Source: an uncultured Gammaproteobacteria bacterium (GTDB taxonomy: Bacteria > Patescibacteriota > Patescibacteriia > Patescibacteriales > GWC2-42-12). Taken from it: a stretch of DNA of 64,000 nt. Of the stretch, positions 7,633 to 59,489 are shown piece by piece. The translations under genes were made by a program, and so were the position numbers. The DNA lies in assembly GCA_964560005.1 (NCBI GenBank), contig CAZLKB010000003.1, positions 174,951-238,950 of the forward strand, written 5' to 3'. Within the stretch, counting starts at the first letter, position 1, and the number at the start of each line of letters is the position of its first letter. The notes under the pieces are model-generated. The model was not told where the DNA came from, made no database searches, and was given only the letters and a program-made list of their open reading frames with translations.

Positions 7633-7678
7633 ATGAAGGCGAGGAAATATTTCCTCGCCTTCATTTTTCCTTTTATTG
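7633..7678 (+). terminator. gyrB rho-independent terminator
   Basis: atgaaggcgagg / cctcgccttcat stem followed by T-run. Confidence 0.8.
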
Positions 7679-7704
7679 ACAAATGAAATAATTAATGTTA
7701 AATA
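7676..7704 (+). promoter_or_regulatory. Sigma70-type promoter of the 7.7-8.1 kb cassette
   Basis: TTGACA - 17 nt - TAAATA. Confidence 0.6.
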
Positions 7705-7714
7705 TTTATTGCAA

Positions 7715-7752
7715 GAATGCATTGTGCGTTCTAAAACGGAATGCGTGCATTC
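7715..7752 (+). promoter_or_regulatory. 5' leader hairpin
   Basis: gaatgcattgtgcgttc ... gaatgcgtgcattc pair with G-U tolerance; covers the first in-frame ATG (7741). Confidence 0.45.
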
Positions 7753-7773
7753 AAGCAAGAAAGAAAGAGTGCT

Positions 7774-8067
7774 ATGGCCGATACAACAAAACTGGCTGGT
7801 ACATTCGAAGCGTGGAGAGGTATTGTTGGAATACCGCCCGAACATTTAGGCGGCGCAATTGTGCGTTGCCAAGAGCTCGGGTTACAACCAAAGACGTGCG
7901 GGTATCAGGACGAGAGGGTTCTTGTTTCTGTTACAATACCCTGTAGCGTCTGCCAAAGTCTGGTTCAAGACTTTACCCTAAAGTGGCTAAGGCCATTCCA
8001 TGCCGCCCTCTATCACGGGGCAAAGGTGTCTCTAATCTGTCCTCCTGACAATTTAACGACGCCATAA
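7774..8067 (+). CDS. Orphan 97-aa protein with 5 Cys (includes CSVC); could instead be a structured RNA
   Basis: ORF between own promoter and own terminator; purine-rich aagaaagaaagag before ATG; no family recognised. Confidence 0.4.
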   Translation: MADTTKLAGTFEAWRGIVGIPPEHLGGAIVRCQELGLQPKTCGYQDERVLVSVTIPCSVCQSLVQDFTLKWLRPFHAALYHGAKVSLICPPDNLTTP

Positions 8068-8091
8068 GTTCCATGATTTTTTGTCAACCAT

Positions 8092-8124
8092 GCCCCGAGT
8101 AGAAAACGAAAGGGGCTTTTTTTT
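8092..8124 (+). terminator. Rho-independent terminator of the 7.7-8.1 kb cassette
   Basis: gcccc ... ggggc stem followed by T8. Confidence 0.75.
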
Positions 8125-8133
8125 CCAAAATTA

Positions 8134-9951: not shown

Positions 9952-9960
9952 ATTATCTTA

Positions 9961-10101: not shown

Positions 10102-10653
10102 TTATTTATTTCTTAATTTCTTATAATCGTTTTTTAAAATACTCATTATTATTACATCAATAAATTTTCCATGTTTATAAACCGTTTGTCTATGTAAGCC
10201 TTCTTTTTTAAAGCCGCATTTTTCATAGCATCTTATACCTCTTTTATTAAAAGTAAATACTCCCAACTCTATTCGGTTCAGTTTTAATTTTTTAAATCCA
10301 AATTTTAAAATCGTTCTTAATGTATCCGCGCCTAAACCCTGCCCCCAATAATTTTTATCGCCGATAACGATGCCCCAAGTAGCTTTTAAATTTTTCTTCG
10401 TATCAATTTGTTGTAGTCCTGTGTTACCAATTAGTTCTCCATCTTTTGTATAGATTGCCCACCTGATCGCTGTTTTGTCGCACTTTGACTTATTAATAAA
10501 TTCTATTTCTTTCTTTAATGTCAGGCCGCTATGGTCGCGTCCTAAATACATATCCACTCCAGGGTCCTTAAACCAACGCAAAAAACTTTCCGCCTGGCTT
10601 AAATTTAACGGTTTCAAAATTACTTTTTTCCCTTTTAATATCGGCGCTTTCAT
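10102..10653 (-). CDS. GNAT-family N-acetyltransferase (RimJ/RimL-like)
   Basis: WGQGLGADTLRTILKFGF and NKRGIRCYEKCGFKKEG motifs; start moved to Met51 because residues 1-50 are translated repeat elements. Confidence 0.85.
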   Translation of the reverse strand: MKAPILKGKKVILKPLNLSQAESFLRWFKDPGVDMYLGRDHSGLTLKKEIEFINKSKCDKTAIRWAIYTKDGELIGNTGLQQIDTKKNLKATWGIVIGDKNYWGQGLGADTLRTILKFGFKKLKLNRIELGVFTFNKRGIRCYEKCGFKKEGLHRQTVYKHGKFIDVIIMSILKNDYKKLRNK

Positions 10654-10662
10654 ATATTTTTC

Positions 10663-10689
10663 TGTCATTGCGGGCTTGACCCGCAATCC
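10663..10689. repeat. TGTCAT-type hairpin element
   Basis: tgtcattgcgggcttgacccgcaatcc, near-identical to 7582-7608. Confidence 0.8.
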
Positions 10690-10747
10690 AGGAGTTAGTA
10701 GTACGCTTGTTAGTTTTACATTATCATTGTTAGCGCTACGCCCTCCT

Positions 10748-10802
10748 GGATTCCGGCTTCGCCCCGCAGATGCGGGGCTCTCCTTCGGAGGCCGGAATGA
10801 CA
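10748..10802. repeat. TGTCAT-type element (reverse orientation) with nested CCCCGCAGATGCGGGG hairpin
   Basis: ggattccggc ... gccggaatgaca with ccccgcagatgcgggg inside; the latter recurs at 38653 and as a variant at 10934. Confidence 0.7.
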
Positions 10803-11044
10803 ATTTTATTATTTTATTTAAAAACCCCGTCTCAATGCACTACAAAATAATGCACTGGGACGGGGCTCAAGTCGCCTCGTGGTTCCACCCAATTTCCCCG
10901 CCCAAGGCGGGACACTCTTTTATTCGGCTTAGCCCCGCATCCGCGGGGTCCCGCATAAAACGGGACTATACTTGGTAATATAGCAATCGCCTAAATGTAA
11001 TATTATTATATATTATTCAGACAAAATGTCAATGATTAGTTTGC

Positions 11045-12687: not shown

Positions 12688-12812
12688 TTCACGCAACTCA
12701 TAACTCGTAGCTCGTCCGCCTCGGCTTCGCTTTAGCGAGACGGGCAACTCTTTTATCCAAGATTTTGAGTTACCAGTTATGAGTTACGAGTTGTGAGTTG
12801 CGAGTTGCGAGA
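12688..12812. repeat. Word dyad (ACTCATAACTCGTA / GAGTTACGAGTT family) enclosing a GCCCGTCTCGC-family element (12710-12745)
   Basis: caactcataactcgtagctcg on the left, gagttaccagttatgagttacgagttgtgagttgcgag on the right. Confidence 0.7.
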
Positions 12813-12871
12813 TGTAAGTTATGATAATATAATTATTATACCAATTTCCCGCATTACTGTCTATGTCTAAA

Positions 12872-16492: not shown

Positions 16493-16590
16493 AATTTTCA
16501 ATTCATAATTTTCAATTTTCAAACAATTTTCAATGCTTTAATTTTCAATTGAAAATTGGTCATTGTAAATTGAAAATTTTTTTCTGTACA
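16493..16590. repeat. AT-rich word dyad (AATTTTCAA / TTGAAAATT family)
   Basis: Contains the perfect palindrome aattttcaattgaaaatt. Confidence 0.7.
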
Positions 16591-17985: not shown

Positions 17986-18030
17986 ATTATTATTAAATTA
18001 ATATTTAGTTTATTGACAAAAACTTTAGTA

Positions 18031-18162
18031 AAATTTTCAAACACCAATTTTCAATTTTCAATGAATTTTCAAAGTTATAATTTTCAAACTTTCCACCATT
18101 TTTATTTGTAAATTGATTCATTGTAATTTCATTGAAAATTGAGAATTGAAAATTGAAAATTA
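18031..18162. repeat. AT-rich word dyad (AATTTTCAA / TTGAAAATT family)
   Basis: ccaattttcaattttcaatg ... cattgaaaattgagaattgaaaattgaaaatt. Confidence 0.7.
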
Positions 18163-19075: not shown

Positions 19076-19083
19076 CTCCTCTT

Positions 19084-19114
19084 TGACAAATTCATAAAAA
19101 AACTTTATTATAAT
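19084..19114 (+). promoter_or_regulatory. Candidate promoter of tRNA-Leu
   Basis: TTGACA - 19 nt - TATAAT, about 15 nt before the tRNA 5' end. Confidence 0.5.
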
Positions 19115-19128
19115 ATCAAACATAAATT

Positions 19129-19215
19129 GCCGATGTGGTGAAATTGGTAAACGCGCACGACTCAAAATCGTGTGGCTTAACGGCCTTGTGGGTTCGAGTC
19201 CCACCATCGGCACCA
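19129..19215 (+). tRNA. tRNA-Leu (anticodon CAA), class II with long variable arm, CCA encoded
   Basis: Acceptor GCCGATG/CATCGGC, anticodon arm CACGA-CTCAAAA-TCGTG, variable arm GGC..GCC, T arm GTGGG-TTCGAGT-CCCAC, 3' ACCA. Confidence 0.93.
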
Positions 19216-19216
19216 G

Positions 19217-19245
19217 AAAGCTAGAACCAGGAGGTTTAGCTTTTT
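19217..19245 (+). terminator. Terminator after tRNA-Leu
   Basis: aaagcta ... tagcttt stem plus T-run. Confidence 0.55.
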
Positions 19246-19302
19246 ATGTTCCTTTAATCGGTAAAAAACAATAGTAAACATAAACAAAAGAAAGGCATAG
19301 TA

Positions 19303-20643
19303 ATGAAACTAGGTAATGTATGGTTGGTCGGCAACGACGCCCGGGCTCATGCCATGGCGGAAGCAATCAAAAGGTCAAGCCAAAAGGTGCGGCTTACCGC
19401 CTGGATGGAAAAATCTAATCCCGGCATCAAGGACTTAGCGGACAAGGTGATTATAGGCGATGGCTATGATGAGCTTATAGACCATGCTTCTTTTTATGGC
19501 AATACCGATTTGGCCATTATTAGCCCGGAAAAGCCACTAATGATAGGGGTAGCCGATGACCTTAGGAATTTCGGCGTGTCCACGGTCGGACCCGGACAAA
19601 AACCAGCTCAAATAGAAGGGTCAAAAGCCTGGGCCAGGGGTTTGATGGTCAAACACCATATTCCGGGCATGCCGATATTCGGGGTTTTTAGTAACCTGGA
19701 CGGGCTTGAACAATATCTTGAGGCGAATCAGCCATTCGTACTGAAGCCCGACGGTTTGACCGGCGGCAAGGGGGTTCAGGTCCAAGGCGAACACTTCAAC
19801 ACGGTTGCCGAGGCAATGACAATCTGCCGGGAAATTCTGGAAAAACACGGCGCTGTGGTTGTGGAGGAAAAACTCGAAGGCGAGGAATTTTCTCTGCAAT
19901 GCTTCTGCGACGGTACCAATGTCGTAGCCACGCCCCCGGTTCAGGATCACAAGCGCCGTTTAATCGGCGACCAAGGCTTAAACACCGGCGGTATGGGCTC
20001 GTATTCCTGCGCCAATCAGCTGCTGCCTTTTCTAACATCAGCCGACCTGGAACAAGCCACTGAAATCGTTAGGCAAACCGTTAAAGCCATACGGAAAGAA
20101 ACCGGAGAGCCTTTCCAGGGCTTTCTCTACGGCGGGTTTATGAAAACCGCCCGAGGCATTATGCTGATAGAGTTCAACGCCCGCTTAGGCGACCCGGAGG
20201 CCATTGATGTCCTGTCGCGTCTGGAAACCGATTTTCTGGACATCTGCCGTTCTATCGCCAGTCCGGAGAGATACGGCGGTCTGGACCGAATAGACATCAA
20301 ATTCAAGCCCCGGGCCACGGTAGTAAAATATGTGGTGCCGGTCTATTACGGCATGCCGAGAAATCTATCAACCCCGATCGCGTCCGATCTAATTCAGATC
20401 GGCGACTTAGGGAAAGCGCAACTGTATTATTCTTCCGTAAACGCGGACGCTGCCGGCATCCACCTGACCTCTTCACGCGCTATAGCCGTTCTAGGAACGT
20501 CCGCTGATATCACCGAAGCGGAAAGAATCGCCGAGCAAGGGGCTCGAGCCGTTACCGGCGCCGTGGATCATCGTCCGGACATTGGCAGGGCCGCGCTGAT
20601 CGCTAAACGAGTGCTACACATGAAACAGCTAAGGGGGGAATAA
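19303..20643 (+). CDS. purD: Phosphoribosylamine-glycine ligase (GAR synthetase)
   Basis: ATP-grasp layout; KPDGLTGGKGV, VQDHKRRLIGDQGLNTGGMGSY, IEFNARLGDPE. Confidence 0.9.
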   Translation: MKLGNVWLVGNDARAHAMAEAIKRSSQKVRLTAWMEKSNPGIKDLADKVIIGDGYDELIDHASFYGNTDLAIISPEKPLMIGVADDLRNFGVSTVGPGQKPAQIEGSKAWARGLMVKHHIPGMPIFGVFSNLDGLEQYLEANQPFVLKPDGLTGGKGVQVQGEHFNTVAEAMTICREILEKHGAVVVEEKLEGEEFSLQCFCDGTNVVATPPVQDHKRRLIGDQGLNTGGMGSYSCANQLLPFLTSADLEQATEIVRQTVKAIRKETGEPFQGFLYGGFMKTARGIMLIEFNARLGDPEAIDVLSRLETDFLDICRSIASPERYGGLDRIDIKFKPRATVVKYVVPVYYGMPRNLSTPIASDLIQIGDLGKAQLYYSSVNADAAGIHLTSSRAIAVLGTSADITEAERIAEQGARAVTGAVDHRPDIGRAALIAKRVLHMKQLRGE

Positions 20644-20674
20644 ACTGTCTTACACCATCAACAAAAACAACACG

Positions 20675-20707
20675 GGGTTTCGCGCCAATAAGCGAAATCC
20701 TTTTTTT
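20675..20707 (+). terminator. Terminator after purD
   Basis: gggtttcgc ... gcgaaatcc stem followed by T7. Confidence 0.7.
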
Positions 20708-20782
20708 ATTAAAAAATTCAAATTTTATTACCGTCTTAAAATCACCCGGGGTTTGTGTGACGAGCTAACCGCCAAAGAAAAT

Positions 20783-20800
20783 TGTCATTCCCGGGAAGGC
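20783..20800. repeat. Truncated TGTCAT-type element
   Basis: tgtcattcccgggaaggc; only one half present. Confidence 0.5.
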
Positions 20801-20886
20801 AGTAATATATATATAGTTTGTATATTCCGTATGATACCATTATAACGTCTATAGTGTTACGAAGTCATTGAACCACTTCGTTTTAC

Positions 20887-20916
20887 TTGACAAAATATTA
20901 AAACTATGATTATATA
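20887..20916 (+). promoter_or_regulatory. Candidate promoter for the 62-aa ORF
   Basis: TTGACA - 18 nt - TATATA. Confidence 0.4.
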
Positions 20917-21014
20917 TAATGTTATCCAATTATTAAAATATAATAAATCCCTTCCTAAATCATGTACAAACAAATTAAATATAACAAAAACAACAAGTAA
21001 AGAATGAGAAAATA

Positions 21015-21203
21015 ATGAAAAGAAGATCTTTAATAATCATTGCATTAATCGTTCCCATTGCTGTGGTAACATTCTGGACTGCAGTCCAGAATGCCCTTCA
21101 ACACAAATGGTGGTTATTTGCCTGTAATATCCTAACAATTTTCTGTTCTGTAGGCGTCACAATGCTACAATGGGAAATATATAAAAATACACCTCCCGAC
21201 TAG
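21015..21203 (+). CDS. Orphan 62-aa two-TM membrane peptide
   Basis: Two hydrophobic helices; own promoter-like and terminator signals; AT-rich unlike the flanking pur genes. Confidence 0.45.
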   Translation: MKRRSLIIIALIVPIAVVTFWTAVQNALQHKWWLFACNILTIFCSVGVTMLQWEIYKNTPPD

Positions 21204-21232
21204 AAGGTGTCGAGGAATGCGCCTTGCCAAAT

Positions 21233-21267
21233 CCCGCTATGTCGAAATAAAACTGGCGGGTTTTTTT
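21233..21267 (+). terminator. Terminator after the 62-aa ORF
   Basis: cccgc ... gcggg stem followed by T7. Confidence 0.6.
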
Positions 21268-21316
21268 ATTTGCCTTTTCCGCGCTTTTATACTAATGTTT
21301 AATTAAACAAAAGGAG

Positions 21317-21346
21317 GACCGAACCCAAATAAGGTTTGGTCTTTTT
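21317..21346 (+). terminator. Second stem-loop plus T-run (terminator or attenuator) upstream of the purB unit
   Basis: gaccgaacc ... ggtttggtc stem followed by T5. Confidence 0.4.
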
Positions 21347-21417
21347 GGCCTTTAACAACCCCTAAAATGGGGATAATAGCAAAACAACAAACACCAAAAC
21401 AGAAAGAAAGTAATAAT

Positions 21418-21639
21418 ATGAAAAATGACAATGAAGCGTTTTTACTGTGGATTCAGCGCAAGCATAACTCGGATAGTTTCTGCTCCGAGCTGGTGGAAAC
21501 TTGCAAGATAGAATTTGCCAAGCATGAGGGGCTGGACAACGACGGACGCAGTGCAATTTACCGGACTCAGCGCGAAAAAATCCACACCAAACACCACGCG
21601 AGATTAAAAAAGCATTTGCGAGTCAGATGCAATTCGTAA
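21418..21639 (+). CDS. Orphan 73-aa basic protein
   Basis: ATG preceded by the A/C-rich leader acaccaaaacagaaagaaagtaataat; 40 bp before purB; no family recognised. Confidence 0.4.
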   Translation: MKNDNEAFLLWIQRKHNSDSFCSELVETCKIEFAKHEGLDNDGRSAIYRTQREKIHTKHHARLKKHLRVRCNS

Positions 21640-21679
21640 ATCAGCGACAAAAATCAAAACCAAAAAGAAAGAGAAGAAT

Positions 21680-23305
21680 ATGAAAACTGCATATAAACAC
21701 ACTGAAAAACTATTAAATAGCATGGTTGAAGGCTACGGAACAAATCTTTTACCTTTAGGGGATTTATTTAGGCTAGAACTGTCGAACGAAGATAGACAAA
21801 GACAGAATTCCCCCATTCCGGCGCTTGGTAGATACCATAAAAGTGTCGCTTTCATGGAGAATGTGACCTCGGCCCGGTCAATCGGCAAAAAGAGATTCAT
21901 GGTGCTGATCGCCTACTTCATCGCTTTGAGCAAGCTGATGGCTGGCTACAACGGAAAATTCCGCCGGGTCAGCGGTAAATTAACCAAGGTTGAAATCAAA
22001 TACCTTAAACGGCTCGGCACCGAACCAGAAGAAATCAAAATGGCCGAACAAGTTGAAAAAGTTTCCGAACACGATACGGCGGCCGCCGGAGATTATTTAA
22101 AACTCCGCATCCTTTACGATTATGTGGTCGGCGGCAAGAAAATCCTGGCCAATTTGTGCCGGAAAATCGAAGCCTTCCATTACGCCGCTACCTCCGAAGA
22201 CATTATGAGCGTTGTCTTCGGTCTAATCGCCAATGAGCTGGTTTATGTGCATTTTATGCGCAAGCTCATGGACTTCTGCGACCACATGGTAAGATTCGTG
22301 GAAACATTTCCGCAGCTACTGCTTATGCCGGAGTTAACCCATGATCAGTTCGCCGAACCAACCACCTACGGCAAAAAGGTCGCCAACGCCCTTGAGGCAA
22401 TTAATACGACAATCCATGACCATCTGCTTGAAGGGGAATCTTTCCGAACCTTTACCGCTAAATTCAATGGCGGGATCGGCGGTTTTGTTACTCACTGCGC
22501 CGCCTATCCGGACATTGCTTGGTGGTCTTTTTCCAGAAGGTTTGTCACCGGCTTCGGCCTGCATCATGAAATGATGACTTACCAATGCGTTCCCTACGCC
22601 CGGGAAGCCCAAATCCTCCGGACAATTATGACCATCTTCGATCAAATCGTGAAAATACTGGAGGATTTCATCAAGCTGGCTAGCGCTCCGGCTCATTTCT
22701 TCCAGAAAGAAAAGAAACCTGGCGCCAAAGGATCGTCCTTGATGCCTAAGGTTAACCTCTGGCAGATTGAGGGCGCAATCGTCATGCTGGAAAAAACGCA
22801 GCACAACCTGGCCTTTCTGGCGGAGAAACTGCAAAAATTCCCGCACGCGGGCAACATGAAGAGGTCATTTCTACTCCGCGATATGGGGAATGATTTCATG
22901 CCCGCTTTCATTGCCTTCGACAGAATTATGAAGGAGATGAAGATCTGCATTGCGAACCCGGAACGAATCGAAGCCGCTTTCGCGGCATCTCCGGGTATGG
23001 CCGGCAGTGCCATGCAAACGGTTCTGAAGCGAGAGGGCGCGTCCGGTGACGCTTACCGAATTGTTCAAAAAGCAGCCGTTAATCCAGACGGCAGTTACAA
23101 CAACTCAGAGCAATTTCGCCTCATCTTAGAAAGGGGGATGGACGAAATGAAATTGCGACGAAAGTTAAGGAATGAACTCCTTGGCCTCCTGGATTACAAG
23201 CGCTTAGCCGAACCTAGCCGCCAAATGGCAGAAAAATGCCTGGCTCGGTTGAAGAGAAGCTTCGCGGATTACAGGAAACGCACCAACACAATAAAAACCT
23301 TCTAA
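21680..23305 (+). CDS. purB: Adenylosuccinate lyase, long variant (541 aa)
   Basis: Aligns by eye with E. coli-type PurB: ALGRY, SEHDTAAAGDYL, ATSEDI, LTHDQFAEPTTYGKK, FNGGIGGFVTHCAAYPDIAW, signature loop GSSLMPKVN. Confidence 0.86.
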   Translation: MKTAYKHTEKLLNSMVEGYGTNLLPLGDLFRLELSNEDRQRQNSPIPALGRYHKSVAFMENVTSARSIGKKRFMVLIAYFIALSKLMAGYNGKFRRVSGKLTKVEIKYLKRLGTEPEEIKMAEQVEKVSEHDTAAAGDYLKLRILYDYVVGGKKILANLCRKIEAFHYAATSEDIMSVVFGLIANELVYVHFMRKLMDFCDHMVRFVETFPQLLLMPELTHDQFAEPTTYGKKVANALEAINTTIHDHLLEGESFRTFTAKFNGGIGGFVTHCAAYPDIAWWSFSRRFVTGFGLHHEMMTYQCVPYAREAQILRTIMTIFDQIVKILEDFIKLASAPAHFFQKEKKPGAKGSSLMPKVNLWQIEGAIVMLEKTQHNLAFLAEKLQKFPHAGNMKRSFLLRDMGNDFMPAFIAFDRIMKEMKICIANPERIEAAFAASPGMAGSAMQTVLKREGASGDAYRIVQKAAVNPDGSYNNSEQFRLILERGMDEMKLRRKLRNELLGLLDYKRLAEPSRQMAEKCLARLKRSFADYRKRTNTIKTF

Positions 23306-23342
23306 GGAAGGCAAACAACAAATCAAAAACAAAAAAAACACA

Positions 23343-23873
23343 ATGAAAAAAAGAATCGTCGCAATCATTATTGGATCAAAAAGTGACGCACCGCAATGCC
23401 TAGAGGGTGCATTGTGGCTTCAAGAGCAACAGACTAAGGGCTTAGTCCATGTCTACCGAGCATATGTCAAAAGCACGCACAGGCACAAAAAAAAGCTGCT
23501 TTGGCTTCTCGACAGTCTTCACTATGCCGACCCGGAAAAAAAGGTTGATGTCATTATCGCCGGCGCAGGCAAGGCTGCGGCTCTCCCGGGAGACATTGAC
23601 GCCTATCTAAGAAACGAACTCGGCGACACCAGTATAAAGGTTGTCGGCGTGGCCTTCAAAAGCAAAACCAAAGGGGACGACGAGGCTGCGGCCTTAAGCA
23701 TCACCAAGGTTCCCGGCACTCAGGTAACTTACGCCGGCCAGGGAGAGGCGGGATTCTTAAAGGCCTGCAAAATGGCCTTAGACGACTCGCTACCGGAAAT
23801 CCATCTAGCGGAAATTCCGCCCAGCCTAGACCTGAACCTTGCTCAATTCATCGAGCTGGCAGAGCAACAGTAG
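23343..23873 (+). CDS. PurE-family protein (AIR carboxylase / N5-CAIR mutase fold) with atypical motifs
   Basis: IIIGSKSDAPQ, VKSTHRHK (canonical SAHRTP), DVIIAGAGKAAALPG (canonical AAHLPG). Confidence 0.72.
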   Translation: MKKRIVAIIIGSKSDAPQCLEGALWLQEQQTKGLVHVYRAYVKSTHRHKKKLLWLLDSLHYADPEKKVDVIIAGAGKAAALPGDIDAYLRNELGDTSIKVVGVAFKSKTKGDDEAAALSITKVPGTQVTYAGQGEAGFLKACKMALDDSLPEIHLAEIPPSLDLNLAQFIELAEQQ

Positions 23874-24867: not shown

Positions 24868-24873
24868 ACACAA

Positions 24874-42398: not shown

Positions 42399-43445
42399 AG
42401 AATTTATTTTTTTTTTCAAAATTTTCACTACCCCATTATCCGCGTCCACTTCCACCAAGTCGCCGTCATGCAAAACCTTAGTGGCAATTTTGGTGCCGAT
42501 GATGCAGGGCTTTTTAAGCTCACGCGCAACAATGGCCGCATGACAGGTAATACCACCTTCATCAGTGACAAAGGCGGCGGCTTTTCTCATTGCTGATATA
42601 AAATCTGGCGTTGTCATTGAACTAACGAGAATTTCACCACTCTTAATTTTAAAAATATCTTTATTCTTTAAAATAATTTTGACAACACCACGTGCTTTCC
42701 CTCTATAAGCAACCTGTCCAGTAAAATGGTCTATTTCTGATAAATTTTGCTCTCCCTCAAGAATAAAATTGAATTTTTTCTCCAGTTTTTTTAAATCATT
42801 GACGGTTATCAACTCATCTCCATTTAAAACTAACGTTTTCTTTTTTCTGACTTTTAGCTGGCTTTTAGTTGGGATTAAATTTTTTCTAATCTCATTTAAA
42901 CTTATAAAACTGGAAAGTTCACCTAGCTCGGGATAAATTTTTCTAAGAGCTGTTTCAATTGAGTGGAAAGCGTCATATTCCACTTTATCTATTTTGCGTC
43001 TTATCCCTATCATAAAATTTCTTTCTGGTTCGCTGTAGCTCATGTCGTTCGGAATAAACAAAGAGGCATAAATCAGCAACCAAAAATCTCCTAGTACCTC
43101 CGTAAAGACTAATAAATCCTTTCTTGTTGGGTGAGGGTTGGCATAAAATTTCTCCAGTACCGGAATCTGACGCAAGTGTTTCTCGGAAAAAATTTTCAAA
43201 AATTTTTGTTTTTCGGCCATCTTATCTTCAAAAATTTTTCGTAATTCTTTATCAAGCGGATTCTCATTTCTGTATGCTTTAGCGAGGCCACCTTCAATTA
43301 AAAAAATGTAGCGCGGGAAAGTCTTAATTTTCTTTCCAAAAAATTCCTTATATCTCCCGCCCCATACTTGGCAGAGAATTAAAGGAAAATCTCTGACAAA
43401 GGCCTTCGGAATAATTATCGGTTTTCTCTTGAACATAATAGTCAA
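42375..43445 (-). CDS. PEP-utilising-enzyme mobile (phosphohistidine swivel) domain protein with an unknown N-terminal domain
   Basis: C-terminus LVSSMTTPDFISAMRKAAAFVTDEGGITCHAAIVARELKKPCIIG matches the swivel domain of PpsA/PPDK-type enzymes. Confidence 0.75.
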   Translation of the reverse strand: MTIMFKRKPIIIPKAFVRDFPLILCQVWGGRYKEFFGKKIKTFPRYIFLIEGGLAKAYRNENPLDKELRKIFEDKMAEKQKFLKIFSEKHLRQIPVLEKFYANPHPTRKDLLVFTEVLGDFWLLIYASLFIPNDMSYSEPERNFMIGIRRKIDKVEYDAFHSIETALRKIYPELGELSSFISLNEIRKNLIPTKSQLKVRKKKTLVLNGDELITVNDLKKLEKKFNFILEGEQNLSEIDHFTGQVAYRGKARGVVKIILKNKDIFKIKSGEILVSSMTTPDFISAMRKAAAFVTDEGGITCHAAIVARELKKPCIIGTKIATKVLHDGDLVEVDADNGVVKILKKKINSGFPPSWE

Positions 43446-46432: not shown

Positions 46433-46461
46433 TGGACATTTTCTGATATTAGTGCTATGAT
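46433..46461 (+). promoter_or_regulatory. Candidate promoter of the 46.5-47.7 kb cassette
   Basis: TGGACA - 17 nt - TATGAT. Confidence 0.45.
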
Positions 46462-46494
46462 TTTTGATTATTTTGTTCATTGAGAATTCAGCGC

Positions 46495-46547
46495 TAAATG
46501 CCGAATTAAGAGCCATAAAAATGCTTGTGCTTTTAATTCGGCATTTA
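46495..46547 (+). promoter_or_regulatory. Leader hairpin with perfect 15-bp arms
   Basis: taaatgccgaattaa - 23 nt - ttaattcggcattta; no T-run after it; 32 nt before the ATG. Confidence 0.6.
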
Positions 46548-46579
46548 CAAAAAAACAACGCAAACACAAAAATAAAAAA

Positions 46580-47089
46580 ATGAGTAAAAAAACTGTTGAT
46601 TTCGTGACGCATGCAGAAAATTACCCAGGGTCAAATCCGAGCCTGACGGCGACCGGGTGCCTGGATGTACGAAAGATAAAAGAGTTAGTCTTAAGTCCGA
46701 CGCATGTATACTGCGGCACGGGCAGGCGCCACGAAGAAACCCGCAGAGAACTCGGCCTTGAACTTGTGCCGACAACCTGGACCCCGGCGATTGGCGGGGC
46801 GGAATCTTCAGCCGTTGTAGATGACCAGGAATTAGTCATATTGGCTGACGGCACGCCTATTCCGCGCAAGAACTACAAGCCAACGATTGACTTCGTGACT
46901 TCAATGCTGGTTTTGCTGGATCAGGCGCCCAATCACTCCGTCATAATTTCCGGACGGCACAACTTAATGATGCTCGGGGTAACAGACCCCCGGCCGGCAA
47001 CCGTGTATCGCATCAGCTTTAAGGGCAAACCTACAATACATAATGTGAAAATCCAGGAGGTCAAAAAAACCGTCGATAAAGGAACTTAA
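46580..47089 (+). CDS. Histidine-phosphatase-superfamily protein, SixA-like, with RHG changed to THA
   Basis: VDFVTHAEN...LTATGC...VYCGTGRRHEET...VIISGRHNLMML parallels the SixA/PGAM-fold order RHG...LTxxG...SPxxRAxQT...SH. Confidence 0.55.
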   Translation: MSKKTVDFVTHAENYPGSNPSLTATGCLDVRKIKELVLSPTHVYCGTGRRHEETRRELGLELVPTTWTPAIGGAESSAVVDDQELVILADGTPIPRKNYKPTIDFVTSMLVLLDQAPNHSVIISGRHNLMMLGVTDPRPATVYRISFKGKPTIHNVKIQEVKKTVDKGT

Positions 47090-47133
47090 GCTGCCTATTC
47101 TTAAAAAAAACAAAAACAAACCAAAACAAAACA

Positions 47134-47616
47134 ATGAAAAAATTAATAATACGGCGATCCGGTAGCGGGCATAATCCGAATAGCATCAGCCGCGATGAGA
47201 TGGTGCAGGCATCACGCCAAGGCATGATGATGCTACACGCCTTGCATCCTAAGATTGTTTTTTATGAACTAACGATCAACGCTGTCCTAACCGCTTTTGC
47301 ATTCTGCGCGGGCATGAGTACATTCCCAGCCCTTACGCAGGGCATCAATATGGATCCACTGCATCGTAGCTCGGCTGACGAATCGCTTGGCTTTTGCCGC
47401 GATACGGTTGAGTCCATCTTCAATCAAATTAAGGACGGTGAAACGGGAATGGCGTTTTTAAGCGACCTGTTCGTTTCACTGGCGATTCACGCTTTCAGCG
47501 ATACCCGCATTAATGAAGAAATAGAGGGAATAGTTTTGTACCAAGACGACGGCGAAATCCGGGTCACCGGAAAAATTCCAGCCAAAAAACGAAAAACGGC
47601 CCTAGAGCCGGCTTAA
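47134..47616 (+). CDS. Hypothetical 160-aa protein (possibly a degenerate paralogue of the preceding gene)
   Basis: LIIRRSGSGHNPN near the N-terminus and LAIHAFSD late in the protein loosely echo the same fold order; weak. Confidence 0.45.
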   Translation: MKKLIIRRSGSGHNPNSISRDEMVQASRQGMMMLHALHPKIVFYELTINAVLTAFAFCAGMSTFPALTQGINMDPLHRSSADESLGFCRDTVESIFNQIKDGETGMAFLSDLFVSLAIHAFSDTRINEEIEGIVLYQDDGEIRVTGKIPAKKRKTALEPA

Positions 47617-47621
47617 CCAAC

Positions 47622-47687
47622 AGCGAGGTCGCGGAAGTCAAGACGCATAACTATGCGCTTCTACTTCCGCCCTCGCTCTTTTTTTAT
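47622..47687 (+). terminator. Long-stem terminator of the cassette
   Basis: agcgaggtcgcggaagt ... acttccgccctcgct followed by a T-run. Confidence 0.8.
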
Positions 47688-47718: not shown

Positions 47719-48657
47719 CTACAACGTCGTAATCGGCCTACTTTGCGTAATATAAAATTTATTTTTCACCAAGGCCCATTCAATATCCTGCGGCTTCTTA
47801 TAATGAAGTTCTATATTTTTACAAATTTTCGCCAGCTCCACGATTTGCTTGCCGGTTAATTTCTGCTTGCCGCCCTGCTTAACCGACAGCTTTTTATGTA
47901 CATTACCACTCTTGACACCATGCGTTATCATCATGCTTTGCTCCGACACATTGATATCTAAAATGGAAAAATCGTTTTTATGGATAACATAAGTATCCGG
48001 CGTGATCTGGCCAGAAACGATAGCCTCGCCTAACCCGAGTCCTGCTTCTATCACCATTTGATTATAATCCTTGGTTACCGGATGAACGGTGAAGCAAATG
48101 CCGGACACTTCGGACTGCACCATGGTCTGAACGACTACGGCCACGGACACTGACTTCTTGTTCATTTTTTGTTCAAAGCGATAGAAAATCGCCCGCGGCG
48201 TAAATAAAGACGACCAGCAAAGCTGGACATTTTTTAAAACTTGTTTTTCGGTAGTATTTAAATAGGTTTCCAGTTGCCCGGCCCAAGCCGCGGCGGAACT
48301 ATCTTCCGCGGTGGCCGACGATCGCACAGCCACATATTTGGCTTTTAACTTTTTAAAATTGTCCATTACTTCCGCGGCAATATCTTTCGGCATCTTGGCT
48401 TTTAAAATCATGGCGCGAATTTCATTTGACGACCGATCCACGGAATTTATGTCCTGATGATTGACTTTTTTTAAAGTCGCTTCAATTTCCATATCCAAAT
48501 CGGTTTCTTCTAAAAATCTATCAAAAGCCGAAGCTAAAACCACAAAACCGGGCGGCACCGGTATACCCGCCTTTGTCATTTCGCCTAAAGAAGCGCCCTT
48601 GCCGCCGGCTATTCGCACATCTTTTTTCGTTAGTTGTTTAAAGGTTTTGGTGAACAT
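47719..48657 (-). CDS. PEP/pyruvate-binding (ATP-grasp) N-terminal domain protein of the PpsA/PPDK family
   Basis: AGGKGASLGEM, VAVRSSATAEDS, PQDIEWAL...QSRPIT as in the PpsA N-terminal domain; ends after this domain. Confidence 0.85.
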   Translation of the reverse strand: MFTKTFKQLTKKDVRIAGGKGASLGEMTKAGIPVPPGFVVLASAFDRFLEETDLDMEIEATLKKVNHQDINSVDRSSNEIRAMILKAKMPKDIAAEVMDNFKKLKAKYVAVRSSATAEDSSAAAWAGQLETYLNTTEKQVLKNVQLCWSSLFTPRAIFYRFEQKMNKKSVSVAVVVQTMVQSEVSGICFTVHPVTKDYNQMVIEAGLGLGEAIVSGQITPDTYVIHKNDFSILDINVSEQSMMITHGVKSGNVHKKLSVKQGGKQKLTGKQIVELAKICKNIELHYKKPQDIEWALVKNKFYITQSRPITTL

Positions 48658-48675: not shown

Positions 48676-49176
48676 TTATACCATCCCCTTGAATTTTCCC
48701 ATTAATTGCGGTATAAGCGGCAGAATAACTTTGGTAAAATTAATCAAAAACGGCGCCACTTGCGAGTTATTTAGCCAGCCCGAAAATGAAGATTGTGAAA
48801 TGTAAAGTAAAATCAAACCTAAAACCAAGCCGCCCTCAATAAAGCCCAGAGCCACGCCGGCCAGTCGATTAATTGTTTTTAAAAAAGGAATCACTGATAA
48901 AAGGTCAAAGGTTCGGTCTAAAATGGCGAAAACAAAGCCAATCAGCCGATTGACCAGGGTAAAGAGAATAATAAAAGTAATGATTTTCCCGGCCACCTCA
49001 TGGCCAAAAAATAAATATTTTGCCCATTCAAAAACCGTCGGATAAAAAATAAAGGCCAGCCATAGCCCCAGCACCATGCCGAGGAGCGAGCCGATCGTCC
49101 TGATCAGCCCGAAAAACAGGCCATAAAAAATAAAACCGGCAAGAATCAGTAATAGAATAACATCAAAGATGGGCAT
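48676..49176 (-). CDS. cvpA: CvpA-family membrane protein
   Basis: MPIFDVILLLILAGFIFYG start and 4-TM layout; start moved to Met13 because earlier codons are a TGTCAT element. Confidence 0.78.
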   Translation of the reverse strand: MPIFDVILLLILAGFIFYGLFFGLIRTIGSLLGMVLGLWLAFIFYPTVFEWAKYLFFGHEVAGKIITFIILFTLVNRLIGFVFAILDRTFDLLSVIPFLKTINRLAGVALGFIEGGLVLGLILLYISQSSFSGWLNNSQVAPFLINFTKVILPLIPQLMGKFKGMV

Positions 49177-49187
49177 AGACTTGGTAT

Positions 49188-49257
49188 TGTCATTGCGGCC
49201 TCCGAGCCGCAATCTTCTCTGTCAATTCATAGATCCCGGGTCAAGCCCGGGATGACA
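49188..49257. repeat. Composite TGTCAT...ATGACA inverted pair
   Basis: tgtcattgcggcctccgagccgcaatc ... gatcccgggtcaagcccgggatgaca. Confidence 0.85.
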
Positions 49258-50726: not shown

Positions 50727-50872
50727 AAATATGACAATTTTTAATTTCTAATTTTCAATTTTTAAACAATTTTCAATGACTTAATTTTCAATTTTAAAAA
50801 CCAGGGGCATTGAAAATTGAAACATTAAATCATTGTTTGAAAATTGAAAATTGAAAATTGAAAATTTTTTAA
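50727..50872. repeat. AT-rich word dyad (AATTTTCAA / TTGAAAATT family)
   Basis: ctaattttcaatttttaaacaattttcaatg ... cattgaaaattgaaac...gtttgaaaattgaaaattgaaaattgaaaatt. Confidence 0.7.
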
Positions 50873-56430: not shown

Positions 56431-56466
56431 TTGACAACATATGCTAAATCATCTAATATGTTGTCA
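56431..56466 (+). promoter_or_regulatory. Promoter with an embedded perfect 11-bp inverted repeat (operator-like)
   Basis: TTGACA - 17 nt - TAATAT; TGACAACATAT - 13 nt - ATATGTTGTCA spans the -35 to +1 region. Confidence 0.65.
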
Positions 56467-56496
56467 GTCAAATTAACGGAAAAAAATAAAAATAAA

Positions 56497-57006
56497 ATGA
56501 AAACAAACGCAAATGAGGAGGCCGAGCGTATAGCGCTGGCAATAGTCAAAAACACCGCTCATAATAAGGGTATATTTTTTAGGCCGAAGGACACTGTGGA
56601 GGACCTGAAAAAGATGTCCGAGGAAATCGGAATTTCCGTGATTTATCTGGCCTACTTCATCGCCCGGGAAATTCTGGGCGAAATCTTTTGGCGCTGCACC
56701 GGCGTGAAAATCCAAATTGAAGTTTTCAGCCAGCCCGGTTTCAACGGCTATAATGCCGGCGCAGTGGCTTTAACCCTTCTAAAGCACGACCATGACGCCA
56801 GGAAAATCGCCCGCGCTCTGAAAGAAGAGAGCGTGAGAGCCAGTCAGCTCCCGGAAAATCTGCAGAGAATATTTGATGAGCAGGTGAAATACGCCGGCAT
56901 AAGCAGTCAAGAGCTGGCGATCTTCTACCGTCAGGAAATCGTTCCAACGGTTTCGGCGTCGGGAAGCCAAACCAGCTCTTTTACCAAGGAGGCTCGTGGC
57001 GGTTAA
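56497..57006 (+). CDS. Orphan 169-aa protein
   Basis: First ATG after the promoter; GC-rich ORF; own terminator; no family recognised. Confidence 0.55.
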   Translation: MKTNANEEAERIALAIVKNTAHNKGIFFRPKDTVEDLKKMSEEIGISVIYLAYFIAREILGEIFWRCTGVKIQIEVFSQPGFNGYNAGAVALTLLKHDHDARKIARALKEESVRASQLPENLQRIFDEQVKYAGISSQELAIFYRQEIVPTVSASGSQTSSFTKEARGG

Positions 57007-57027
57007 GAAGCCGCTTTCGCGTTAACC

Positions 57028-57056
57028 CGCGTCCGATTAAAACTCGGACGCTTTTT
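57028..57056 (+). terminator. Rho-independent terminator
   Basis: gcgtccga ... tcggacgc stem followed by T6. Confidence 0.85.
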
Positions 57057-57079
57057 TATATAGGACATACGCGTTTGGA

Positions 57080-57194
57080 CTCGAGGCAGGTGGTTGTTTT
57101 GAGCGCATACGAAATTGTAGCGATTTTCCGCCAAATCATTTAGCGGAAAATCACCCAAATTTCGTCCTAAGCGAAAAATAACCCCCACCTCGGG
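57080..57194. repeat. About 115-bp foldback (MITE-like) element
   Basis: ctcgaggcaggtgg..ttttgagcgcatacgaaattg ... caaatttcgtcctaagcgaaaaa..ccccacctcggg; core shared with 63801-63945. Confidence 0.75.
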
Positions 57195-57250
57195 CTATCC
57201 GGAGTCGCGAATATAAATATGCCATTCTATGACCAAACGCGTAAATCCTG

Positions 57251-58495
57251 TTATAAAGACTCTTCTGCCGCGCTTTCCCCTGCCACATACCCGGTGCTCC
57301 AGGCGGCTTGCAGGTTATAGCCTCCGGTCGGGCCGTCTATATCCAAGAGTTCGCCAGCGATAAATAGATTATTAACTAGCTTTGACCGCATGGTGCGAGG
57401 ATCAATTTGTTTTAAAGACACGCCTCCGGCCGTAACCATAGCTTTATCAAAGTCTTCAAGCGCTTTAAAAGTCAGCTTGAAATGCATAAATATTTTTATC
57501 AAGGCCATCCTCTCGGTTTTGGTTATGGCGCTGGATTGCCTGTCGGCATTAATTGATAATAATTTTAATATAACCGGCGTTAACCTGGACGGAATTAAAC
57601 CCGCCAGGCTATTGCTAAATAATTTTTTACCGTTTTTCACTAAAATACTTTGCAATTTTTTGTCAAATTGAGCGGCATCAATTTCAGGAAAAAAATCAAG
57701 TTCCACTATTAAACCGCTAACTGATTCAGTGCCAACGAATCTGCTTAAATCCAGAACCGCCGGCCCGCTTAGTCCGGAAGAAGTAAATATAATATCTCCG
57801 ATAACAGAAGCTAGTTTTTTATTACTATTCCATAAACTAATACCCGCATTATTCAAACTTAAACCCTGCAACTCTCTGATAAATTTCTCTTTTACCAAGA
57901 TCGGCGTCAGCGCCGGCCTAAGCGGTAAAATCGTATGGCCTAGTTGCCTTAACCATTCATAGCCGGAACCGCTTGACCCGGTCGAAGGATAAGATTTTCC
58001 ACCGGTGGACATAATATAATTTTGCGCTTTAATTTCTTCTCCATCGACTAAAATGATTTTTTCTATCTTTCCATTTTTAGCAATAATTTCTTTAACTTCC
58101 GCGTTAAGGCGGATTTCCACTTCTTTTCTTTTCACTTCATCAAGTAAAACCTTAAGTACATCGGCGGCCTTATCGCTCTGCGGAAAAACTTGATTGTTTT
58201 TTTCTGTTTTCAGTCTTAGCCCGCGGCTCTCAAAAAAATCAATCACCTCGGACGCGCCGAATTTATTAAACGCGGAAATTAAAAACTTGCCTTTAGGGCC
58301 GAAGCGCGAGGCTAGCAATTTCGCGTCAGTTAAATTGTTGGTTAGATTGCATCGTCCGCCGCCGGTAATTAAAAGTTTAACTCCCGGACGATGATTTTTT
58401 TCAACCAGAAGCACGCGCGCGCCCGACTCTCCGGCTCGTATCGCGGCCATTAAACCGGACGGACCGGCGCCGATTATTATGACATCATAATTCAT
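57251..58495 (-). CDS. FAD-dependent oxidoreductase, HI0933/BaiN-like family
   Basis: DVIIIGAGPSGLMAA dinucleotide fold, GGGRCNLTN motif, C-terminal GGYNLQAAWSTG. Confidence 0.88.
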   Translation of the reverse strand: MNYDVIIIGAGPSGLMAAIRAGESGARVLLVEKNHRPGVKLLITGGGRCNLTNNLTDAKLLASRFGPKGKFLISAFNKFGASEVIDFFESRGLRLKTEKNNQVFPQSDKAADVLKVLLDEVKRKEVEIRLNAEVKEIIAKNGKIEKIILVDGEEIKAQNYIMSTGGKSYPSTGSSGSGYEWLRQLGHTILPLRPALTPILVKEKFIRELQGLSLNNAGISLWNSNKKLASVIGDIIFTSSGLSGPAVLDLSRFVGTESVSGLIVELDFFPEIDAAQFDKKLQSILVKNGKKLFSNSLAGLIPSRLTPVILKLLSINADRQSSAITKTERMALIKIFMHFKLTFKALEDFDKAMVTAGGVSLKQIDPRTMRSKLVNNLFIAGELLDIDGPTGGYNLQAAWSTGYVAGESAAEESL

Positions 58496-58502
58496 ATTTG
58501 GT

Positions 58503-58650
58503 AGATTGTGCTAGTTATAGCCGTAGAGTTTTGGCTAAATTTATTTATTTTTGAAGCGAGGAATGACCGGCCGGCACATAATGAATTTGATCCGCAGCGA
58601 AAAAATAAATGAATTTAGCCAAAACTAAAATCATTAATTAGCACAATTTC
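58503..58650. repeat. About 150-bp foldback (MITE-like) element
   Basis: gattgtgcta..gttttggctaaatttatttatttttgaagcgagg ... ccgcagcgaaaaaataaatgaatttagccaaaac..tagcacaattt. Confidence 0.75.
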
Positions 58651-58685
58651 TATTTATTTAATTATACCACAAACAACTGACTGCC

Positions 58686-58737
58686 TTGACAGCCGGTTGA
58701 CAATAATCTAATATTTAAAGTTAGTTAAGTCAACCGG
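58686..58737 (+). promoter_or_regulatory. Promoter overlapped by a 9-bp inverted repeat
   Basis: TTGACA - 17 nt - TAATAT; CCGGTTGAC - 27 nt - GTCAACCGG brackets the -10 and start region. Confidence 0.6.
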
Positions 58738-58790
58738 AAAGCACCTTATAACAACATCAAAAATCAATACAGAGAACGACAGGAGAGATC

Positions 58791-59444
58791 ATGCAAAAAA
58801 TAATTGAAAAATCGGTCAGCCTGCTTATTATGACTCGGTTGAAAATCAAACCGGACGGTCCGGAAGAATTGGTAGCCGTACTTCAACGGCGAGGAGAGTT
58901 TAATCACGAAACTATGGGACCGGAGTCGTGGCCCGGCGTTGACCAGCTCACGGTTCATGGGAAAATCAAGAATAGCGAAAGCGACAAGGGCGCGCTTTGC
59001 CGCGAAACCCGGGAAGAACTGGGAGGAGACTTCGTCAGTGGCAAACTGGCCTGGGAGGCAATCACCGCTAATATGATTGAAATCGGCCGGGTGGAAAAAC
59101 CCGATAAAGTCATAGTTCACTACGCTATTGAAGTTTTAGCTCTGGCTTTGCCGTTATTCCGTCTTAACTCTTCCACCGGCGGTCTGCGGCTAATCACGAA
59201 GTCTGATCTATCTGACATCCAGGCGGTTCCTAACTGGAACTGTAATAAAACGGACGGAGTCTACGCCAGAAGGACCTTCGCCATGTTTCCGGACGAGATC
59301 AAGGCGCTGAAACAAGCCTTCACCATCTTCGACAACCGGACAACTGCAACTCCTTGCGCAGAAGTTATTGAGGATGCTGTGCTCGCAGGACATCTACGCA
59401 AGGTGGCGCAAGTGTCATTAAACCCAACGCCATCGGCCGCTTGA
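58791..59444 (+). CDS. Nudix hydrolase family protein
   Basis: Complete Nudix box G-x5-E-x7-RE-x2-EE-x-G: GKIKNSESDKGALCRETREELGG. Confidence 0.85.
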   Translation: MQKIIEKSVSLLIMTRLKIKPDGPEELVAVLQRRGEFNHETMGPESWPGVDQLTVHGKIKNSESDKGALCRETREELGGDFVSGKLAWEAITANMIEIGRVEKPDKVIVHYAIEVLALALPLFRLNSSTGGLRLITKSDLSDIQAVPNWNCNKTDGVYARRTFAMFPDEIKALKQAFTIFDNRTTATPCAEVIEDAVLAGHLRKVAQVSLNPTPSAA

Positions 59445-59452
59445 TAAACACG

Positions 59453-59489
59453 CCGCAATGATTGGAAAACCAATTCTTGCGGTTTTTTT
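59453..59489 (+). terminator. Rho-independent terminator
   Basis: ccgcaa..attgg aaaa ccaat..ttgcgg followed by T7. Confidence 0.85.

Follow-up and report, generated by a model that had tools for sequence, protein, structure and literature searches.

Opposite-strand genes with open A/C-rich leaders in a Falkowbacteria-like Patescibacteria chromosome

Introduction

Most housekeeping genes in a 64,000-nucleotide (nt) stretch of contig CAZLKB010000003.1 (positions 174,951 to 238,950, referred to here as the window) lie on the - strand and are interrupted by short transcription units on the + strand. An earlier note on this DNA read these units as a dispersed family of autonomous cassettes with a shared grammar of promoter, leader and terminator, forming an accessory gene layer of common origin or common regulation. 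The question raised by the locus is whether the units form such a family and which of their traits set them apart from their neighbours. With somewhat better than even confidence, the best explanation is that they are ordinary lagging-strand genes that differ in history, are transcribed independently and share open A/C initiation regions.

Gene map and relatives of the window

The GC content is ~43% across the window. All 2-kb bins show a negative GC skew on the + strand, so the - strand is probably the leading strand; the + strand is enriched for A and C. Fifty-five genes were called, and 38 of the 42 core genes lie on the - strand. The core genes assigned by Pfam on the - strand are thrS, dnaE, parAB, groES/EL, the atp operon, tatD, sua5, metG, rsmI, typA, L25, ftsW and comEC, and those on the + strand are prfA, prmC, gyrB and mscL. 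The positions of the opposite-strand units hold as given in the earlier note, but its list omits these four + strand core genes, and it enters 20887-21267 separately although this unit is nested in the pur block (19303-24909) that is also listed. The closest relatives of AtpD, TypA and ThrRS belong to uncultivated Patescibacteria, mostly labelled Falkowbacteria (80-90% identity), and the window is part of a Falkowbacteria-like Patescibacteria chromosome. Loci and contigs from relatives are cited by labels in the style L001-L174. In the leader tests, "cassette" genes are the genes of the units of the earlier note (n = 13), and these are compared with core genes (n = 41).

Leaders of cassette and core genes

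The A/C-rich leader is the one trait that proved specific to the units, and it is absent from core genes. With corrected start codons, 10 of the 13 cassette genes but not one of the 41 core genes have a T content of no more than 10% in the final 30 nt ahead of the start (Fisher p=1.2e-8). Over the 35 nt upstream of the start, mean T is 0.14 in cassette genes and 0.36 in core genes (p=8e-6), and mean A is 57% and 38%, respectively; G is low in both. The region from -35 to +25 of cassette genes folds with a median minimum free energy (MFE) of -0.9 kcal/mol and an unpaired probability of 0.80, compared with -5.8 kcal/mol and 0.56 for core genes. Internal coding windows, which serve as a comparison for the initiation regions, fold at a mean MFE of -10.9 kcal/mol.

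The leader type is not a strand effect, because the + strand genes gyrB and mscL have T-rich leaders (T 0.40 and 0.37, respectively) and the - strand gene 31313-32098 has an A-rich leader. A pure A/C leader also precedes one gene on the - (core) strand of the relative L161. Strict A/C leaders number four in the 64-kb window and three in 2.34 Mb of relatives' loci, a density ~50-fold higher here.

A further kind of leader was observed at ~12 core genes on the - strand. These leaders are T-rich with a 7-nt period, as in (AATTTTC)n, (TTTTACA)n, (TTTGTCA)n and (GAGTTAC)n, and examples are found at 4221-4334, 12762-12825, 16493-16571, 18024-18161, 38036-38108, 41653-41719 and 50728-50866. They run in both orientations and recur between loci, and the groEL leader is conserved with L161. 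None was found among cassette genes.

The pur orthologues of three relatives (L161, L162 and L163) have kept the A/C composition of the leader while its sequence has changed, and the core genes that flank these pur loci keep T-rich heptamer leaders. Homologues of the histidine-phosphatase-like protein have A/C leaders in L173/L174 and L170-172; the leader in L169 is A-rich but contains GGAG. Composition kept across differing leader sequences, together with the rarity of such leaders elsewhere, suggests selection on composition, and from these sequence comparisons leader composition looks to be under selection.

Translation initiation

Shine-Dalgarno (SD) motifs are rare in the window. One of 41 core genes forms a duplex of <=-4.5 kcal/mol with a generic anti-SD sequence, the host's 16S tail lying outside the window, and three of 13 cassette genes carry a motif (GGAGG, AGGAG or AAGGA). 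Core genes are almost wholly SD-less too, but their leaders are T-rich. A weak purine patch (GAAAGA or GGAG) is seen 8-15 nt before the start in some cassette leaders.

SD-independent initiation in Bacteroidota and cyanobacteria is S1-assisted or structure-free. It has in common with the window little or no SD and a nucleotide bias that keeps the start region unfolded. Unlike in those groups, two leader compositions are found in one genome and are split by gene class. The promoters of the window are also classical (TTGACA/TATAAT), unlike the Bacteroidota type, and the A/C tracts are nearly without T and G. The finding is a variant of known SD-independent leader usage. An A/C tract of 30-60 nt cannot pair with itself, so that the start codon would lie in fully open RNA. 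Such a tract would serve SD-independent loading of the 30S subunit, and selection would maintain it. This reading agrees with comparative work (PMC5397173) in which non-SD initiation is favoured where the RNA about the start codon is weakly structured.

The A-rich tracts could instead be operators of a common post-transcriptional regulator, of the Hfq/Crc type that binds "CA motifs" (AAnAAnAA), with the units as one regulon; this explanation is considered very unlikely. Pseudomonas and Azotobacter provide documented cases of the motif and of how it works (PMC5429807), and the likeness to Pseudomonas lies in AAnAAnAA-type tracts beside the start codons of some metabolic genes. The motif AANAANAA occurs within -40 to +3 of eight of 13 cassette genes and 10 of 41 core genes (p=0.003), but this enrichment follows from base composition alone. 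Unlike the Pseudomonas motifs, the tracts of the window are much longer and contain C, and the likeness is one of motif occurrence. No Hfq or Crc gene is present in the window, and a set of pur enzymes, a Nudix hydrolase, a phosphatase-like protein and orphans gives no clear regulon logic.

Coding composition and replication strand

Coding GC is 0.486 in cassette genes and 0.430 in core genes (p=1.6e-4); gyrB, atpA/D and groEL are as GC-rich as cassette genes. The codon-usage gap between the two classes is ~10 standard deviations in a permutation test. Its main signal is the use of C- versus T-ending NNY codons, which ranks genes by strand. The C-ending NNY fraction is 0.54 in mscL, 0.52 in prfA and 0.45 in gyrB, which places these genes among the cassettes, and every - strand gene lies at <=0.49. 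The gap is mostly an effect of replication strand, because the + strand core genes rank among the cassettes. Third-position GC and AT skews of + strand cassettes equal those of + strand core genes and give no sign of recent import. Codon usage as proof of foreign origin was rejected, since the signal sorts by strand. The compositional difference between cassette and core genes is real in codon usage and GC, its codon part mostly following strand.

The units might accordingly be nothing special, the product of replication-strand bias and of a selective picking of A-rich examples by the earlier note. The nearly perfect sorting of genes by C-ending NNY fraction, the equal GC3 and AT3 skews of + strand cassettes and core genes and the enrichment of the + strand for A and C all favour this view, but it is judged decidedly unlikely on the evidence of the leaders. 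The AT3 skew is only ~0.07 and cannot lower leader T from 36% to 0-10%. Counter-examples exist on both strands, the composition is conserved in the orthologous leaders of relatives, and the density of strict A/C leaders far exceeds that in 2.3 Mb of related loci.

Promoters, terminators and repeats

The promoters reported for the units at 7676, 20887, 34408, 46433, 56431 and 58686 were recovered, all with -35/-10 pairs. The pairs at 34408, 46433, 56431 and 58686 each score 10/12 in a promoter scanner, and the promoter at 20887 has a TTGACA -35 box. A stem-loop with a T-run closes every unit, with ends at 8124, 20701, ~21261, 24909, 34760, 47687, 57056 and 59489 and, for the - strand unit, at 31274. 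As a distinctive grammar these signals do not stand, because core genes carry equal or better ones. The promoters at 11032 and 62018 score 12/12, those at 19089, 12863 and 31227 score 11/12, and those of gyrB and mscL are TG-extended and score 10/12. Coding regions more GC-rich than their spacers are likewise true of all genes in the window. Units that face neighbouring operons would each need their own sigma-70 promoter and intrinsic terminator, and the autonomy of the units follows from an orientation that opposes their neighbours.

Repeats resembling repetitive extragenic palindromes (REP-like elements) have the form GTCAT, a GC-rich palindrome and ATC, and frequently occur as inverted pairs. 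The pattern has 15 matches, three of which are chance matches within coding sequence, and ~12 are convincing. Positions include 7583, 10664, 34315, 34825, 35879, 35919, 41511, 41545, 49189, 49230, 53455, 54346 and 54385. Among the convincing elements, at least nine are found between core genes, compared with only 2-3 that adjoin cassettes. The statement that repeats abut units is correct for these 2-3 copies; it does not hold as a unit feature, since most copies sit between core genes. REP-like repeats as cassette boundaries were rejected because the majority flank core genes. Some REP-like elements are translated as the N-termini of over-long open reading frame (ORF) calls, e.g., 10102-10803 and 48676-49212.

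Common origin and mobility

No cassette protein was matched by tblastn in 160 relatives' loci around atpD and typA, and in L081 another opposite-strand gene occupies the h200/typA slot. Variability is not confined to the + strand, because several - strand genes are also missing from relatives' loci, namely the HI0933-like gene 57251-58495, the PPDK_N gene 47719-48657 and the saccharopine dehydrogenase gene. The idea of an accessory layer is sound for most small units, which are missing from the syntenic loci of relatives, but not for the pur block and the 46433-47687 module. Conserved synteny, which the earlier note had named as evidence against its reading if universal, is found for these two units in close relatives.

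A family of common origin was not borne out. The cassette proteins have no mutual similarity, and the leaders are alike only as low-complexity sequence. Domain scans of the ORFs in the window gave no integrase or transposase, a repeat search found no 3' element or terminal repeat shared among the units, and comparison with an empty gyrB/thrS site showed no evident target-site duplication. PHROGs, PADLOC and tblastn against phages returned nothing meaningful for the units, and a phage or defence origin was rejected on these grounds. Common origin is unsupported because there is no sequence family, no mobility machinery in the window and two units are long-resident. The results support the view that the units are a recognisable class by leaders and coding GC, not a sequence family.

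By history, the units comprise a conserved purD unit and purB-purE-purC operon; a conserved, fast-diverging pair of degenerate histidine-phosphatase-fold genes; lineage-specific small genes (the Nudix hydrolase and two orphans, of 169 and 261 aa); and one or two that are probably RNAs or tiny ORFs.

A horizontally exchanged accessory pool, with units that each bring their own expression module and are dropped into gaps between operons, is considered an unlikely explanation. A 40%-identical relative of 46580-47089 with an identical A/C leader adjoins a serine recombinase and, in a third contig, a DDE transposase, and purC is nearly as close to Verrucomicrobia (~62%) as to a Patescibacteria relative (65%). 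SD motifs are nearly confined to cassettes, cassette GC is above core GC, most small units are absent from syntenic loci, and the atpG/atpD and h200/typA gaps hold differing opposite-strand genes. Against such a pool stand the lack of a recombinase, transposase or shared terminal repeat in the window, third-position skews equal to those of resident + strand genes, the conserved position of two units in close relatives, with upstream DNA that is 74% identical for one of them, the lack of any match to phages, PHROGs or defence families, and mutually unrelated cassette proteins.

Known systems were also compared. Integron cassettes are promoterless, attC-ended genes that form same-orientation arrays beside an integrase and are not dispersed. 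The units resemble them in being small, compact, often orphan accessory-type genes. Unlike integron cassettes, the units are individually equipped with a promoter and a terminator, and they are dispersed over 52 kb with no attC-like 3' element and no integrase. Integron gene cassettes were rejected, as neither attC, a promoterless array nor an intI integrase is present. An insertion sequence, a miniature inverted-repeat transposable element (MITE) or an integrative islet was rejected as well, there being no recombinase, transposase or shared terminal repeat in the window and no evident duplication at the gyrB/thrS site. The lagging-strand accessory genes and islets of streamlined genomes share with the window core genes co-oriented with replication and variable genes in gaps with their own promoter and terminator. 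Unlike typical islets of that kind, the pur block and the histidine-phosphatase-like pair hold position and the units share a distinctive leader type.

The pur block

The pur block contains three units:
19083-20701, + strand: purD unit with a TTGACA-17-TATTAT promoter, tRNA-Leu(CAA) (19129-19215), purD (19303-20643) behind an A-rich leader, and a terminator (20674-20701).
20887-21261, + strand: small nested unit with a TTGACA promoter, an A/C-rich leader, a 62-aa two-helix membrane ORF (21015-21203) and a terminator.
21262-24909, + strand: purB-purE-purC operon with genes for a purB-like lyase (21680-23305), purE (23343-23873) and purC (23956-24867) and a terminator (24873-24909).

The assignment as Pur enzymes was confirmed, with PurD, PurB-like, PurE and PurC domains above Pfam gathering scores (GARS_A, 178 bits; Lyase_1, 50.2, cutoff 27; AIRC, 49.3, cutoff 30; SAICAR_synt, 234). 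The genes purF, N, L, M and H were not found in the window, where the purine pathway is incomplete. Only a weak promoter-like match had been reported for the block; the strong TTGACA-17-TATTAT promoter lies upstream of tRNA-Leu(CAA), with which purD would be co-transcribed. The nested ORF 21015-21203 is a singleton in the protein collection and has a weak codon score (-0.08).

An A/C-rich spacer precedes each gene of the purB-purE-purC operon. A conserved promoter and a 5' hairpin with a T-run (AAGGAGGACCGAACC...GGTTTGGTCTTTTTGGCC, ~21310-21356) lie ahead of the operon, and the leader region contains a possible 73-aa ORF from an ATG at 21418. The first 17 codons of the "ORF" called from 21367 are A/C leader, and the start at 21418 is likelier.

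A conserved element made up of a promoter and hairpin/T-run, AACAAGGAGGACCrArCC-N6-7-GGTTTGGTCTTTTTGGCCTTTAA, was observed in three genomes, in each case ahead of pur genes. It is located at 21262-21375 (+) in the window, at ~1195-1262 and 2735-2800 in L162 and at ~2850-2925 in L161. Although the genome is poor in SD motifs, the element holds a perfect SD-like AAGGAGG; the stem changes among the genomes are G.U<->A.U only, and no Rfam match was found. It is possibly an attenuator or riboswitch of the pur operon.

The gene order in L161 is parB-parA / lyase-purE-purC / TPR-AI2E ... groEL-groES, and L162 and L163 are similar. PurC is 65-70% identical in these three relatives, in which the pur genes also have higher GC, and ~62% identical to Verrucomicrobia proteins versus 65% to a Patescibacteria relative.

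The histidine-phosphatase-fold module

The module at 46433-47687 consists of two genes:
46433-47687, + strand: two-gene module with a TGGACA-17-TATGAT promoter, a 5' untranslated region (UTR) hairpin (46506-46543), pure A/C leaders and a terminator.
46580-47089, + strand: gene for a 169-aa histidine-phosphatase-fold protein.
47134-47616, + strand: gene for a 160-aa distant paralogue.

The protein encoded by 46580-47089 has relatives and so is no orphan: its family numbers at least 150 representatives in a full HMMER scan, mostly of 150-190 aa, with the consensus "VTHG...NPGMT..G..QV..L...CGTG.RH". AlphaFold2 with a 43-sequence alignment produced a model with a predicted local distance difference test (pLDDT) score of 95.1 and a predicted template modelling (pTM) score of 0.89, compared with a pLDDT of 32 for the single-sequence model. 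Foldseek against the PDB matched the model to RosC, PGM, PGAM5 and SixA with a probability of 1.0 and a TM score of ~0.6. The SixA-like phosphatase proposed from the sequence is thus confirmed at the level of the fold, with the RHG arginine replaced. The catalytic RHG site is T10-H11-A12 here (Arg to Thr) and "VTHG" in the family consensus, and R50-H51 is conserved. The predicted model matches the fold of branch 1 of the histidine phosphatase superfamily (SixA, PGM, RosC). Unlike the members of branch 1, which have RHG, the protein has THA, is shorter and is not recognised by Pfam; His_Phos_1 is weakly matched by four of 43 family members.

In L173/L174 a homologous module adjoins a saccharopine dehydrogenase gene (68% identical), as in the window. 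These loci appear to belong to the same organism as the relative with 87% ThrRS identity, the contigs coming from the same samples. The 247-nt region upstream of the L173 module is 74% identical, including the promoter, 5' UTR hairpin and A/C tract, whereas the module proteins are only 39% and 22% identical to the pair in the window and the gene order is swapped. This combination of similar upstream DNA, diverged proteins (22-39%) and swapped order suggests, with little confidence, that the platform at the 46433 locus may stay constant while its cargo is exchanged from a common pool of accessory genes. A further copy of the module with a similar terminator is present in L169. The 40%-identical family member noted above has the identical A/C leader in several contigs and adjoins a large serine recombinase, with the DDE transposase in one contig.

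A wider version of this idea, held with little confidence, proposes two initiation regimes in Patescibacteria of this lineage. T-rich leaders with a 7-nt period would serve the core genes, and GC-rich, fast-evolving or exchangeable genes would sit on portable platforms that combine a sigma-70 promoter with a 5' hairpin and a structure-free leader of pure A/C.

Four histidine-phosphatase-like paralogues were observed in L173 (634-4574)/L174, with the "RHG" variants RKHS, THGD, RRHS and RHGD. Three have a GC of 0.53-0.55 and the RHGD-type has 0.45-0.48, against flanks of 0.38-0.40; two have A/C leaders. The phosphoenolpyruvate (PEP)-synthase/pyruvate phosphate dikinase (PPDK)-like domains around the module are split into PPDK_N (47719-48657) and PEP-utilizers (42375-43445). 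Between them lie the + strand module and saccharopine dehydrogenase-like and ornithine/diaminopimelate decarboxylase-like genes (polyamine-type). The gene directly next to the module in L173 is a PEP-utilizers gene of 493 aa.

Other units and candidate RNAs

The remaining units are as follows:
7676-8124, + strand: unit with a TTGACA-17-TAAATA promoter, a ~400-nt GC-rich body, a 108-aa ORF (7741-8067) and a terminator.
31274-32220, - strand: unit with a GGAGG SD, a 261-aa orphan (31313-32098), a terminator (31274-31296) and weak promoter candidates (32161-32220).
34408-34760, + strand: unit with a TTGACT-17-TATATT promoter, a possible 65-aa basic ORF (34509-34706) and a strong terminator (34729-34760).
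56431-57056, + strand: monocistronic unit with a TTGACA-17-TAATAT promoter, an A-rich leader, a 169-aa orphan (56497-57006) and a terminator (57029-57056).
58686-59489, + strand: monocistronic unit with a TTGACA-17-TAATAT promoter, an A/C-rich leader with AGGAG, a gene for a divergent Nudix hydrolase (58791-59444) and a terminator.

The codon log-likelihood of ORF 7741-8067 (-0.06) is below that of every confident gene, and its start region is highly structured (-21.4 kcal/mol). The 407-nt transcript 7712-8118 folds with z=-5.65. A control folding put it at z=-4.7, while 36 coding-sequence controls came out at -0.37+/-1.11 and the reverse complement at -1.7, so that the excess of structure is strand-specific. 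The unit gave no Pfam or PHROG match and no Rfam match even at E<=1, and ARAGORN found no tmRNA. For the transcript 7712-8118 a structured non-coding RNA is more probable than a gene at 7741-8067, and it is a candidate novel RNA. The unit is missing in three relatives (81-87% ThrRS identity), whose gyrB/thrS gap is 58-174 nt versus 558 nt here.

The shared leader style and own terminator of the - strand gene 31313-32098 were both verified. Its coding score is 0.15, its product is a singleton cluster, and it is absent between atpC and groES in L003, where these genes are contiguous.

The unit 34408-34760 sits between atpG and atpD with REP-like elements on either side (34315 and 34825). The coding score of ORF 34509-34706 is 0.011 versus 0.009 for the antisense frame, and the ORF is doubtful; the unit folds with z=-1.1. 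In relatives, the atpG/atpD gap contains unrelated small opposite-strand ORFs at 9780-10000 in L002 and 9540-9900 in L003 (reverse strand). These encode ~55 aa and a ~100-aa membrane protein, and each comes with a TTGACA promoter, a strong SD (GGGGG) and a terminator and has palindromic repeats beside it. The gap content points to a recurrent insertion slot within the atp operon.

ORF 56497-57006 has a coding score of 0.22, with no family match and no homologue in the 160 relatives' loci. The Nudix box of 58791-59444 is complete (GX5EX7REUXEEXGU: G57-KIKNS-E-SDKGALC-RE-T-R-EE-L-G-G), but the Pfam score for PF00293 is 17.5 bits (E=0.004), below the cutoff of 21.1, so that the Nudix product named earlier is accepted on the motif and not on the domain score; the protein is a singleton cluster. 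The segment 56431-59489, including the - strand HI0933-like gene 57251-58495, is replaced by other genes in L081. Self-complementary nested hairpins of ~190 nt (57062-57249) and ~140 nt (58505-58647) flank this HI0933-like oxidoreductase gene. They were rejected as transposon ends because the two are mutually unrelated, and they may be MITE-like elements or bidirectional terminators.

A non-coding gap at 59635-59890 (-) has a promoter at 59921 (TTGTCA-17-TATTAT with TG), a terminator near 59640 and a fold z of -3.3. It gave no Rfam match and is a possible small RNA. The candidate RNAs at 7712, 34443 and 59635 had no homologue by blastn or nhmmer in 160+ relatives' loci, and Rfam at a permissive threshold gave no match for any unit.

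A T-box-like leader was observed at 10853-11009 (-). It scores 33.8 bits (Rfam cutoff 93) with a good match to the T-box/terminator core, and comes directly after a perfect promoter (TTGACA-16-TATAAT, 11032). The genes downstream of it are one for a GNAT acetyltransferase and, after that, thrS. In relatives the GNAT gene is missing between the position of the T-box-like leader and thrS.

Discussion

The dichotomy between cassette and core leaders is established, as are the predicted unfolded state of cassette initiation regions and the persistence of leader composition across diverged orthologues. Several points weigh against the reading of the units as ordinary lagging-strand genes with open A/C initiation regions. 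Three cassette genes have real SD motifs. The leader statistics are not fully independent, because the earlier note picked the units partly by leader and the cassette class is thus partly defined by the leaders themselves. Strand and class are hard to separate within the window, because only four core genes lie on the + strand. The 16S anti-SD tail and rpsA lie outside the window, some core start codons are calls of this analysis, and the A/C tract could be a binding site or a rut-like element instead.

The reading of the units as mobile cassettes is corrected by this analysis, in which their autonomy reflects orientation and most of the codon-usage signal reflects replication-strand bias. By-products are the candidate ~400-nt structured transcript and the conserved hairpin leader before the pur genes. 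If the leader dichotomy is genome-wide, leader composition would be a sequence-only marker that distinguishes core from niche or accessory genes in uncultivated Patescibacteria, and it would hint at how these SD-poor organisms initiate translation on different gene classes.

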